Position numbers and translations under genes: made by a program
DNA from: a virus
Reading direction: 5' to 3' (one strand)
Length of the DNA stretch: 27,297 nt
Virus genome (UHGV): UHGV-0184544
Shown here: one piece after another, positions 1,576 through 4,437 of the stretch
How positions within the stretch are numbered: the first letter of the stretch is position 1
Layout of the letters: each line of letters starts with the position of its first letter
Notes under the pieces: model-generated
Databases searched by the model: none
Told to the model about the DNA's origin: nothing
The model's input: only the letters and a program-made list of their open reading frames with translations

Positions 1576-1962
1576 ATGTTCATCAAACATGTGGTTATCA
1601 GCCTGCTCGGAAACAAATTCTACACCGGAAAAGACAAGGTCACGTTTGATTATGTGCTGGCTGCCAAATTGCGTGATGCCGGACTGGCGATCGAACGTAA
1701 TTATCTGGTTGATATGGGCAACGGTAAGCGCGGATTCGTCGATATCATGGTCGTTGCCCCATCTGGTGAACGGTGCGCGATCGAGGTGGACAGAGCGTCA
1801 CCACGGGCACGTTCAATACTGAAACTGCGCAGACTCAAGCTATACGGCATTCCTGGTATCGTGCTTCTGCGCTGTTCACGTAATCCGGATCAATACGTTA
1901 GCGATGAGATCGACGTGATCCCGGCAACGGGTAAATCACGTAGCAAGGGGGCGTCATGCTGA
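1576..1962 (+). CDS. Hypothetical protein, possibly a small PD-(D/E)xK / VRR-NUC-like nuclease, translationally coupled to the helicase
   Basis: 128 aa. Motif GFVDIMVV...ERCAIEVD resembles a PD-(D/E)xK core with the usual Lys not obvious. Stop TGA 1960-1962 overlaps the helicase ATG at 1956. Nuclease assignment is tentative. Confidence 0.5.
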   Translation: MFIKHVVISLLGNKFYTGKDKVTFDYVLAAKLRDAGLAIERNYLVDMGNGKRGFVDIMVVAPSGERCAIEVDRASPRARSILKLRRLKLYGIPGIVLLRCSRNPDQYVSDEIDVIPATGKSRSKGASC

Positions 1963-3476
1963 AAATAATCCCAAACTTTGCTCAGGAGCGCGGTTTAAAC
2001 CAGCTGCGGCACCAGTGGAAACAGCATCGCACGTACTTGATGTACGCACCCACTGGCTCTGGCAAAACTGGTCTTGCAGCATTCGTCACCGCCGGAATGG
2101 TTGAACGTGGTATGCGGGTGATGTTTGTCTGTCCGTACACCATCCTGCTGAACCAGACAGCGGAACGTTTCACCGAATACGGTTTACCGTGGGAAGAAAT
2201 CAGTTTTGTATGGCGTGATCACCCTAACTATGACCCGTCACGACTGATTCAGATTGCCAGTGCCGACACGCTGATCCGTCGTGAGTTTCCTGACAACATC
2301 GATCTGCTGATCATCGATGAAGCACACATGAAGCGTCGTGCGTTACTTGAGGTTATCCGGGACAGAGACATCAGGGTTCTTGGACTTTCCGGCACCCCAT
2401 TCGCAGCCTGGATGGGGAAGTACTACGAATGCCTGATCAAGCCTACAACGATTCGTGAACTTATTCAGCGTGGTGATCTGAGCGATTACGAGTTTTTTGC
2501 CCCCTCAATGCCTGATCTGACTGGCGTAAAAACCAGTAACACCGTATTTGGACGGGATTACAACGAGGAACAGCTCGCATCCATCATGGGGAGTTCGGAT
2601 CTGGTTGGCGATATCGTTAGCAACTGGCTTGAGAATGGCGAGGATTTACCGACGATCTGCTTCTGCGTGAACGTGGCTCATGCGAACTTTGTTACCCGTG
2701 AGTTTTTACAGTCTGGCATTGGCGCAGAGGTGATGACGGCAGATACCCCCCATGATGAACGGCAGGATATCATTCGCCGTTTTGAAGATGGTGCGACCAA
2801 AATAATTGTCAACGTCGGCGTACTGGTTGCGGGATTTGACAGCGATGTTCGCTGCCTGATCTACGCCCGTCCGACCAAATCAGAAATCCGCTGGTTGCAG
2901 TGCATCGGGAGAGCGTTACGTACTGCGTCTGGTAAAAAACGCGCATTGATTTTCGACCATTCCGGTACGGTTCATCGGCTGGGCTTCCCCGAGGATATCG
3001 AGTATGACGAACTTCCGGGAAAAAATGACGGAATGAAAGCGTCTGCTGGCGGTGGCGAGGTTAAAGCTGAAAAACTTCCCAGAGAATGCCCCAAATGCCA
3101 CTTCATGAAGCCTGCTGGTGTACACATGTGTCCCAAATGTGGATTTCGCCCACTTGGTGGTGATGACGTGGCGACAGATCGCGATCGTAAGCTTTTACGC
3201 GTCAACAAAGGGAAACGCGAATACACCCGTGAGGAAAAACAGCGTTGGTGGAGTGAGATCAAGGGTTATCAGAATTACCGCAACGCGACGGGTAAACCCC
3301 TGAGTGACGGATGGTGCGCTCATACCTACAAGGAGAAGTTCGGTGTGTGGCCTAAAGGCTTCAGTAATGCGCCGCTGCAAACCTCAGTTGAAGTGTACAA
3401 CTTCATCAAGTCAAAGACCATTGCCTATGCCAAAGGGCGCAAGAAAGCCATGACAGGAGGCCAGCATGCAGACTAA
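1956..3476 (+). CDS. Superfamily-2 DEAD/DEAH-box helicase with C-terminal Cys4 zinc ribbon (replication helicase candidate)
   Basis: Walker A APTGSGKT, Walker B/DEAH LIIDEAH, motif III LSGTPF, and C-terminal CPKCHF...CPKCGF read from the 506 aa translation. Confidence 0.85.
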   Translation: MLKIIPNFAQERGLNQLRHQWKQHRTYLMYAPTGSGKTGLAAFVTAGMVERGMRVMFVCPYTILLNQTAERFTEYGLPWEEISFVWRDHPNYDPSRLIQIASADTLIRREFPDNIDLLIIDEAHMKRRALLEVIRDRDIRVLGLSGTPFAAWMGKYYECLIKPTTIRELIQRGDLSDYEFFAPSMPDLTGVKTSNTVFGRDYNEEQLASIMGSSDLVGDIVSNWLENGEDLPTICFCVNVAHANFVTREFLQSGIGAEVMTADTPHDERQDIIRRFEDGATKIIVNVGVLVAGFDSDVRCLIYARPTKSEIRWLQCIGRALRTASGKKRALIFDHSGTVHRLGFPEDIEYDELPGKNDGMKASAGGGEVKAEKLPRECPKCHFMKPAGVHMCPKCGFRPLGGDDVATDRDRKLLRVNKGKREYTREEKQRWWSEIKGYQNYRNATGKPLSDGWCAHTYKEKFGVWPKGFSNAPLQTSVEVYNFIKSKTIAYAKGRKKAMTGGQHAD

Positions 3477-4437
3477 GAAGGCAGCGGCCGGGCATTGGGG
3501 GCGAATTTTTGAATATTACGGCATGCCTCCTGTTACTGGCTTGAAACATTATAGCGGCCCCTGCCCGATATGTGGTGCCAGAGGTAAATTTCGCTGTGAT
3601 GATAAGGATGGTTCCGGTTCATGGATTTGTGTCTGTGGTCACGGGGACGGGATGAAGTTGTTGCAACTTGCCACGGGTAAGCCCTGGGTTGATCTGTGCG
3701 ATGAAGTCGATCGACTGGTTGGTAATACCTGGAAGAGAGGGCATGCCAGACGCACTGTAACGGATATTGCCAGAGAACGGGAGCGGGTCATGGATAAGTT
3801 TGCCGGACTCCCGTGTCTGCGGGGCACAACAGGTGAGGCGTACCTGCAGGGGAGGGGAATACTCCAGTTACCGACCGAATCCGTGCGTTTCTGTGACCGT
3901 CAGATCGCCAGCGGGCGCGAATATCAGGCAATTTATGCCATTGCAACAGATGACAAAGGTTCTCTTTGCTATCTGCATCGTACGTTGCTGGATGGTGATC
4001 GCAAGGCGAATGTAGAGGCGGCTAAAAAAATGACTGCGCTACAGGAGTTGCCTGGTTTGCAGCATGCCAAATCGGTGGCAATACGCCTGTATCCGGTGTC
4101 GTCCACTCTGGGGATAGCCGAGGGTATCGAAACTGCGCTTTCATGCCGTCAAATCTTCCGCTGCAATGTGTGGTCAACAATGAACTCCGGTTTTATGGAG
4201 AAGTTTATTGCGCCACCAGGCGTTAATCACCTGATTATCTTTGCAGACAATGATGAGCACGGCGCAGGTCTGGCGGCTGCCTTTAAATGTGGGCATAAGA
4301 ATCTCATGAGTCGTAATGACGTTGAGAAGGTCAGCATTCGCTGGCCTGACTTGCCGGATTTTAACGACATGCTCATTCAGGGGTGTGAAGCCCGTGAACA
4401 TGTGTTGACGCGCAAATTCAAAGCGGAGGCTGCCTGA
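3466..4437 (+). CDS. Phage/plasmid-type DNA primase (N-terminal zinc-binding motif + Toprim-like domain)
   Basis: N-terminus GPCPICGARGKFRCDDKDGSGSWICVCGHGDG is typical of primase zinc-binding domains. Acidic motifs (IIFADNDEHG) fit a Toprim fold. Start overlaps the helicase stop. Confidence 0.75.
   Translation: MQTKKAAAGHWGRIFEYYGMPPVTGLKHYSGPCPICGARGKFRCDDKDGSGSWICVCGHGDGMKLLQLATGKPWVDLCDEVDRLVGNTWKRGHARRTVTDIARERERVMDKFAGLPCLRGTTGEAYLQGRGILQLPTESVRFCDRQIASGREYQAIYAIATDDKGSLCYLHRTLLDGDRKANVEAAKKMTALQELPGLQHAKSVAIRLYPVSSTLGIAEGIETALSCRQIFRCNVWSTMNSGFMEKFIAPPGVNHLIIFADNDEHGAGLAAAFKCGHKNLMSRNDVEKVSIRWPDLPDFNDMLIQGCEAREHVLTRKFKAEAA

Follow-up and report, generated by a model that had tools for sequence, protein, structure and literature searches.

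How does a lambdoid prophage start to copy its DNA when it carries no counterparts of the lambda replication genes O and P? The question was raised by the viral genome UHGV-0184544, from which a stretch of 27,297 nucleotides (nt), here called the window, was read on one strand, 5' to 3'. Between the repressor gene cI and the Q-like antiterminator gene no Phage_rep_O or lambda-P-like protein was detected among the Pfam and PHROG profile matches; the lack of O/P-like genes had been recorded in an initial annotation made from the sequence alone. In their place, at positions 1576-4437, lie three overlapping genes for a 128-amino-acid (aa) protein (p128), a superfamily 2 (SF2) DEAH helicase and a primase-type protein. 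This module is, by its sequence, the published unit Eru1 and hence already known. It is probably the early-right (pR) replication unit of a 933W/Sepvirinae-like lambdoid prophage, replacing lambda O and P, a role deduced from its location, its synteny and the domains that it encodes. Within the literature searched, the nuclease fold of p128 and its link to replication initiators, its rare allele, a companion protein (p93) and origin-like DNA are unpublished, and they are put forward here at the level of hypotheses.

The genes of the module are the following.

Positions 1576-1962, + strand: 128-aa open reading frame (ORF), p128, from the ORF list.
Positions 1956-3476, + strand: SF2 DEAH helicase of 506 aa, eru1A, identified by Pfam, phrog_16 and motifs.
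Positions 3466-4437, + strand: primase-type protein of 323 aa, eru1B, identified by Pfam, phrog_510 and motifs.
Positions 4437-4886, + strand: DUF1367/NinB(Orf)-like protein of 149 aa, eru1C, identified by PF07105 and phrog_319.

The overlaps read earlier at 1956-1962, 3466-3476 and 4437 were borne out by the ORF coordinates and the junction sequences. Gene p128 and the helicase share 7 nt (ATGCTGA), the helicase and the primase 11 nt, and the primase and eru1C 1 nt (TGATG). Every downstream start has a Shine-Dalgarno sequence of the GGAGG or GGGGG type located within the preceding gene, and the same three reading frames are found in the RefSeq annotation of a 99.7% identical prophage. The three ORFs were scored as real genes and not as chance ORFs, in view of their profile matches given below.

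In phage TL-2011c, Llarena et al. (2021; PMC8044961) described eru1A (506-aa DEAD/DEAH helicase), eru1B (323-aa Toprim protein) and eru1C (149-aa DUF1367 protein) as "EHEC phage replication unit 1" (EHEC, enterohaemorrhagic Escherichia coli), which stands in place of lambda O and P. The window has the same gene order, position, proteins and lengths as Eru1 of TL-2011c (gp30-32) and of P13374, phi191 and Ss-VASD, so the non-lambda replication module of the initial annotation is this unit. Identity to TL-2011c was 98.6% for the helicase (gp30), 92.6% for the primase (gp31), 99.3% for the DUF1367 protein (gp32), 99.6% for cI, 98.7% for cro and 96.7% for p93; for p128 it was 37% (gp29). The 3.9-kb stretch 1000-4900 matched 98 phage records at 90-96% identity, mostly of Shiga toxin (Stx) 2a phages and including TL-2011c, P13374, phiON-2011 (O104:H4), phi191 and Shigella Ss-VASD, and the module stretch was found in 155 of 5,426 complete E. 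coli genomes. The window differs from published Eru1 in that the small gene upstream of the helicase is another allele, part of the upstream non-coding DNA is different, and the prophage lacks stx genes. The published description names no small gene, no p93 and no origin.

The helicase matched ResIII (4e-15), Helicase_C (4.5e-12), DEAD and phrog_16 (1e-110). Its motifs are Walker A APTGSGKT at residue 31, DEAH at 121, SGT at 145 and QxxGRxxR (QCIGRALR) at 315, followed by a four-cysteine zinc ribbon, CPKC-x10-CPKC, at residues 378-395 (CPKC at 378 and 392). The earlier description of a DEAH helicase with a zinc ribbon thus stands, and the features looked for in a RadD-type protein (SF2 motifs I, II (DEAH), III and VI, with a zinc ribbon after the core) are all present. 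E. coli RadD (YejH; PDB 6jde/7r7j) was the closest solved relative (6jde, E 4e-17, residues 12-346), and the zinc ribbon aligned weakly with the zinc-binding segment of RadD. Against the RadD equivalog NCBIfam NF053632, however, the helicase scored 90.6 bits with a cut-off of 720, and only residues 15-346 matched; by this measure it is not a RadD ortholog. The two proteins share the DEAH motif II and a zinc ribbon after the helicase core but differ in the C-terminal domain, which in the phage helicase is conserved only in the phage family. This domain (about residues 425-495, window 3230-3440) lies past the zinc ribbon and is near-invariant across six genera, with the pattern KQ.WWS.IK.YQ..R...GKP.SDGW.AHT...KFG.WP; no Pfam family matched it, and it is a candidate DNA-binding or partner-binding domain. 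RadD itself is a chromosomal repair factor and is not known to be linked to a primase.

Three Pfam domains were found in the primase, Zn_Ribbon_Prim (PF08273, 9e-15, residues 28-63), DUF7146 (9e-18, 103-190) and Toprim_3 (PF13362, 5e-11, 215-305), and phrog_510, "DNA primase", matched at 8e-139. The four cysteines of the zinc ribbon (CPIC at 33, CVC at 55), the Toprim Glu (in EGIE at 219) and the DxD in DNDEHG at 261 are intact. Domains and ligands are those of the zinc-ribbon/Toprim primases of the P4 alpha and T7 gp4 N-terminal type; the earlier reading as a zinc-ribbon/Toprim primase thus stands. No solved-structure relative of the primase was detected by sequence, and no hexameric (SF3/SF4) helicase domain was seen in it or in the module among the Pfam and PHROG matches. 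The third gene of the published unit, eru1C, gave matches to PF07105 (4e-24) and, at 4e-62, to phrog_319, "NinB/Orf homologous recombination mediator". Four versions of the module, those of Klebsiella, phi467, Kosakonia and Serratia, lack this gene, and in them Q or another gene comes after the primase. Because of the NinB/Orf match and of its absence from these four versions, eru1C is probably a nin recombination gene outside the replication unit proper, and its product more likely mediates recombination than takes part in replication.

By sequence, p128 matched no Pfam (E<=0.1), NCBIfam or PADLOC family, and phmmer returned no PDB relative. It matched phrog_1347 ("unknown function") at 2e-50, aligning to positions 152-276 of the 417-position profile. 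A word-indexed homolog search with p128 returned near-identical E. coli copies only; an exhaustive HMMER search of 1.8 billion representatives returned 74 relatives, 38 of which were used as the alignment for AlphaFold2 (AF2). The resulting model (mean predicted local distance difference test (pLDDT) 90.6, predicted template modelling score (pTM) 0.86) has an alpha-alpha-beta-beta-beta-alpha-beta core, which includes the alpha-beta-beta-beta-alpha-beta core of PD-(D/E)xK proteins. All of its leading structural neighbours were PD-(D/E)xK proteins, and Foldseek agreed. The p128 family profile matched the PD-(D/E)xK protein AF1548 (E 2.8e-4), with D56 and E70 aligned to the Asp and Glu of the nuclease motif. 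On account of these neighbours and of the AF1548 match, the label "nuclease-like" given to the 128-aa protein was right at the level of the fold; the VRR-NUC profile (PF08774) did not match, and that part of the label finds no support at the level of the family. Across the family E70 is nearly invariant and D72, R77, S80 and K83 are invariant, the last three lying on the helix after strand 3; the putative site comprises D56, E70-x-D72, R77, S80 and K83. The protein is probably dimeric.

The connection of this fold with initiation came from the larger relatives. About half of the 74 are 250-490 aa long and have the domain in their interior. Among 36 larger homologs, the N-terminal matches were to Phage_rep_O (4), DUF1376 (5), HTH_36 (2), DUF6291 (1), Phg_2220_C (1) and other winged helix-turn-helix (wHTH) domains. 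In Providencia phage PSTCR7lys, a 390-aa "replication protein O" consists of an O-like N-terminal part (10-173), a p128-like domain (about 169-282) and an O-like C-terminal part (280-382), and its gene is directly followed by that of a DnaB-type helicase. In initiators of the lambda O, DUF1376 (Rac YdaU-type) and HTH_36 types the same PD-(D/E)xK domain is present, 35-43% identical (E as low as 3e-10) and retaining the invariant E, D, R, S and K. Their genes have the corresponding location, past cro and directly upstream of the phage helicase gene. These initiators differ from p128 in that the domain is an insert between the wHTH origin-binding and the helicase-recruiting C-terminal domains and the partner is a DnaB-type helicase, whereas in the window the domain stands alone and is partnered by an SF2 helicase and a primase encoded separately. 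The p128 domain, now "hypothetical" everywhere, might be annotated as a PD-(D/E)xK domain linked to the initiators of phage replication. One distant stand-alone homolog (locus L024, 1696-2348) lies directly downstream of a small HTH_20 wHTH gene and overlaps it (stop/start); the pair may represent the wHTH-plus-nuclease-fold initiators in split form.

Fusion of the domain to replication initiators also bears on an anti-phage role, which the initial annotation had kept in view for the first two genes. The nuclease-helicase pair, or the whole set, would then serve defence or superinfection exclusion. Pairs of a nuclease and an SF2 helicase are common in defence systems, the structural neighbours of p128 include Shedu SduA, McrC, Card1/Can2 and Hna, and the helicase gave partial PADLOC matches (PbeA, 62 bits; type IV mREase, 60 bits; DpdF; Cas3). 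These matches, however, cover the generic SF2 core, about 100-320 residues of models that are 670-950 long, and PADLOC-DB 2.0 had no match for p128, the primase, p93 or NinB, so the defence models lent the idea no support. A primase always accompanies the pair, which lies in the O/P position of a prophage that has no other replication genes. Since the genes belong to the lytic pR operon, which is CI-repressed in the lysogen, the expression state would also be wrong for a prophage-encoded defence. A defensive function was judged extremely improbable.

Two more elements, both upstream of p128, are needed to describe the locus in its relatives.

Positions 1073-1354, + strand: p93, a 93-aa ORF, phrog_852, supported by PHROG match and synteny.
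Positions 1355-1575: non-coding block, a candidate origin or control region, conserved in primary sequence.

The order p93, non-coding block, a gene slot, helicase, primase is shared by 16 loci, which represent seven genera (E. coli, Salmonella, Klebsiella, Buttiauxella, Kosakonia, Serratia and nine Xenorhabdus species), and p128 fills the slot in 14 of these 16 module variants, in six genera. In the Serratia prophage the slot holds an unrelated 181-aa protein matching RepL (above the Pfam cut-off) and HTH_36, that is, an initiator-type wHTH protein. Because of this protein, and because the p128 domain occurs inside initiators, the slot directly upstream of the helicase is best read as the initiator position. 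All 16 modules have p93 between cro and the non-coding block. It carries an invariant arginine-rich motif, EPVSFR..NRAR..ANTRLR, and its RefSeq start is the ATG at 1097; its AF2 model is a three-helix bundle (pLDDT 75.6), for which no informative fold match was obtained. In X. lircayensis (locus L007, 4848-5755) about 900 nt separate the small gene from the helicase, and in X. budapestensis (locus L010, 6068-6893) the helicase match is broken by about 800 nt after residue 322. These extra stretches may be inserted genes (homing endonuclease or intein-like).

The gene in the slot is also the most variable part of the module. DNA identity to TL-2011c was 97% to about position 1330, mosaic at 43-70% over 1330-1500, 93% at 1501-1529, 27-60% over the small gene (1560-1939) and 87-100% from 1940 onward. 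The p128 allele, at 37% identity, is set between flanks of 94-99%. Every sequenced Eru1 phage of the phage collection has the gp29 allele and none has that of the window, which was found in 15 of the 5,426 complete E. coli genomes. Among phages the closest versions of it come from Klebsiella (47%) and from E. coli phi467 (43%). Across genera p128 is the least conserved protein of the module, at 37-49% compared with 64-69% for the helicase. The E. coli modules present two divergent p128 alleles, not presence and absence. Such divergence is the pattern expected of an initiator that determines specificity, and it is also compatible with a selfish or arms-race gene. In lambdoid phages the N-terminal half of O shows similar variation in initiator specificity.

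The non-coding block ahead of p128 contains the following elements.

Positions 1362-1426: AT-rich stretch, with a palindrome at 1382-1405 inside it.
Positions 1427-1439: G-tract block GGGGGTAAGGGGG.
Positions 1456-1471: hairpin GTGCCC-GTAA-GGGCAC, with a GNRA loop.
Positions 1491-1507: box (C)ATAGGTTAGGTAGATC, with a Dam GATC site; AGGTTAGGTAGATC at 1494-1507.
Positions 1546-1561: palindrome TGTGCTAGCTATCACA.

The AT-rich stretch (77-80% AT) opens the block; it includes the most AT-rich 60 nt of the first 7 kb and ranks among the top 0.2% of 60-nt windows there. Each of the block motifs occurs once in the window. In relatives the non-coding stretch between p93 and the slot measures about 190-290 nt, and 14 loci retain both the G-tract block and the TTARRTAGATC box although their proteins are only 40-70% identical; the box is present in two copies in Xenorhabdus and three in Serratia, and palindromes stand at both ends of the block. 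A scan of 700-2100 for promoters and terminators found only pR-like hexamers (786-814), with counts not above those of shuffled sequences, and gave no + strand promoter or terminator inside 1355-1575. The conserved primary-sequence elements and the AT-rich stretch make the block a candidate origin. Since it is unchanged beside differing slot occupants, and even beside none, its boxes are more likely read by the helicase C-terminal domain, the primase, p93 or host factors than by p128.

Three other interpretations of the block were set aside. A structured RNA was rejected: RNAalifold on 12 sequences gave a consensus with 0 pairs, Rfam had no matching family, and folding of the single DNA sequence gave only z = -2.3. 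A nutR/boxB reading of the hairpin at 1456-1471 was rejected since no second copy of its core (<=2 mismatches) was found in the 17 kb left of cI of the near-identical prophage, and position and shape of the stem are not conserved in relatives. Finally, the palindromes listed in 14 intergenic regions showed no clean pattern of co-variation with the p128 alleles, and for this reason p128 is not proposed to read them.

From these elements the following course of events may be proposed. Cleavage of CI would release pR transcription through cro and p93 and across the block at 1355-1575, taken as the origin with its AT-rich, unwinding-type stretch, its G tracts and its GATC-containing box. Transcription would then continue through the translationally coupled genes for p128, helicase and primase. 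Standing in the slot of a wHTH initiator, p128 would supply the origin-specific DNA-binding, possibly nicking, component. We hold this role tentatively, at a little under an even chance. The RadD-like SF2 helicase would open or extend the unwound region, probably with the host single-stranded DNA-binding protein (SSB), and the zinc-ribbon/Toprim primase would make RNA primers for the host polymerase (Pol III); host DnaB might also be recruited. NinB and NinG would act in recombination and not in initiation.

Carried further, the p128 family would be an as yet undescribed kind of origin-specific initiator module built on a restriction-endonuclease fold, alone in Eru1 phages and inserted in lambda-O-like, DUF1376 and HTH_36 initiators, which would bind and perhaps also nick the origin. 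Eru1 phages would then start replication with p128, a RadD-like helicase and a private primase and not by the route of initiator, helicase loader and DnaB, and the p128 alleles would set specificity between co-resident prophages. This wider proposal is conceivable, although we consider it doubtful. An organisation of the same kind is known from IncQ RSF1010, in which the initiator RepC, the helicase RepA and the primase RepB' work with an oriV of iterons, GC-rich and AT-rich segments and ssi sites. The likeness is one of organisation only, namely a self-contained set of initiator, helicase and primase beside a composite candidate origin that has AT-rich and G/C-rich segments and a hairpin. No sequence kinship is known; RepA is a hexameric RecA-fold helicase and not an SF2 protein, and RepB' is not known as a Toprim primase.

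Several points count against replication by this module or against p128 as its initiator. SF2 helicases are not classical replicative helicases, and because the closest relative, RadD, is a repair and recombination factor, the phage helicase might be an accessory, with host DnaB doing the work. At the putative site of p128, about 20% of the stand-alone homologs have Asn or Ala in place of D56, and the canonical Lys position of the PD-(D/E)xK motif is taken by the invariant Asp, D72. An acidic residue at the Lys position is known from BamHI (D..E-x-E). Given these two departures from the motif, and the arrangement in BamHI, catalysis by p128 is possible but uncertain. The conserved boxes of the block are constant across very different p128 alleles, which makes p128 an unlikely reader of them. 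In the 15 genomes that have the window's allele it always comes together with the variable intergenic part, a linkage that says little because the two sequences are adjacent. The slot is empty in the Kosakonia modules, which keep the non-coding block, and at least one distant stand-alone homolog of p128 (locus L022, 3461-3826) adjoins a tail protein gene (phrog_5302), outside any replication module. The homolog that follows the HTH_20 gene likewise limits the reading of the slot as an initiator position. As to the published unit, its function was assigned explicitly by position (PMC8044961), and the follow-up is also comparative (PMC8951638); no functional study of Eru1 was found in the literature searched, the papers that name it being descriptive.

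The empty Kosakonia slot, the unrelated Serratia gene and the homolog among tail genes would suit a p128 that is dispensable for replication, a free-standing endonuclease of selfish or accessory nature (homing-type or moron-like); the working module would then consist of the non-coding block, the helicase, the primase and possibly p93. Highly divergent alleles within near-identical surroundings, and a domain inserted in several unrelated initiator families, agree with this. The Kosakonia case is weakened by the state of the loci. In two Kosakonia records (L019, 7247-8217; L020, 5618-8214) the primase is split at the same point into ORFs of 232 aa and 80/85 aa, and in L020 the helicase is split too. 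Because of these splits the loci suggest decay, and they may represent either decaying prophages, perhaps dead, or a reduced module. The Serratia replacement is itself of the initiator type and points to a functional slot. Moreover, the retention of p128 in most module variants and genera, the replacement of alleles in E. coli in place of the presence/absence polymorphism typical of homing, and the lack of a match to any known homing-endonuclease family in Pfam all speak against a selfish gene, which we consider quite improbable.

A different assignment is suggested by the company that p128 keeps by fold and by position. Bax1, NucS, Hjc and VRR-NUC are among its best structural neighbours, and the RecA-like C-terminal lobe of the helicase matches XPB/Rad25 by sequence (1e-6), its best relative being the repair helicase RadD. 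Like Bax1 with XPB in archaea, or VRR-NUC with SNF2 proteins in phages, p128 could be the structure-specific nuclease partner of the helicase and not an initiator. Together the two would act on forks, D-loops or R-loops, for instance to initiate replication of the recombination-dependent or rolling-circle type or to rescue forks that have stalled; recognition of the origin would fall to p93, the primase or the C-terminal domain of the helicase. A 7-nt overlap of their genes points to co-expression, and the conserved DNA boxes do not co-vary with the p128 alleles. In relatives, however, p128 and the helicase lie 36 to 900 nt apart, so the coupling is not conserved, and a 37% allele swap beside a 98.6% identical helicase is hard to square with a tight complex. 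The domain is fused to origin-binding initiators beside DnaB-type helicases, not to SF2 helicases, and NinG/Rap and NinB/Orf, encoded directly downstream, already supply junction processing. With the XPB-Bax1 and SNF2/VRR-NUC pairs themselves p128 has no family-level match, its Lys position is Asp, and those pairs function in repair, away from any phage initiator position. A nuclease partner of the helicase was therefore ranked as unlikely, and p128 is retained as the tentative origin-associated factor.

The remaining genes around the module are as follows.

Positions 30-743, - strand: cI, with HTH_3 and Peptidase_S24 domains (Pfam/PHROG matches).
Positions 803-1042: cro, in the early-right operon.
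Positions 4888-5457: NinG.
Positions 5454-5654: NinH.
Positions 5877-6503: Q-like antiterminator.

The full order, cI, cro, p93, p128, helicase, primase, ninB, ninG, ninH, Q, is that of a lambdoid early-right operon. The left arm of the 99.7% identical prophage holds int, xis-like, methylase, exo, RecT, gam, kil, Rha and toxin-antitoxin genes; no replication gene was found in it. From Q to a NanS-p-like esterase gene (6503-7923) the window has neither stx ORFs nor tRNA genes, where Stx phages have them, and the prophage appears to belong to the Eru1/Sepvirinae group as an stx-negative member. In this interval the STnc100 small RNA instead occurs twice in tandem, at 7044-7237 (140 bits) and 7513-7721 (130 bits). 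Far downstream, the tail-fibre gene (22588-24603) contains collagen triple-helix repeats (Pfam Collagen, 1e-44), which account for the GC peak of 0.62-0.64 at 23-24.5 kb. A low-GC patch (0.36) beyond it, within 25000-27086, encodes a YadA-anchor autotransporter-type protein (26016-27086), likely a moron.

Phages of the Eru1 type carry stx2a in highly virulent EHEC outbreak strains (O104:H4 in 2011, O103:H25 in 2006) and have been reported as less stable lysogens than lambda-type Stx phages (PMC8044961, PMC8951638). Because toxin output follows amplification of the phage genome, the way in which this module would start replication is of medical relevance. The new points are modest and matter mainly since the module probably drives genome amplification of high-virulence Stx phages. 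To the published unit they add two conserved components that it lacks, p93 as the fourth and the nuclease-fold p128 as the fifth, and they offer a candidate origin at 1355-1575 with defined conserved boxes. The two natural p128 alleles lend themselves to swaps that probe replication specificity. If p128 is indeed an initiator, the Stx phage of the O104:H4 outbreak would also start its replication with a nuclease-fold initiator.

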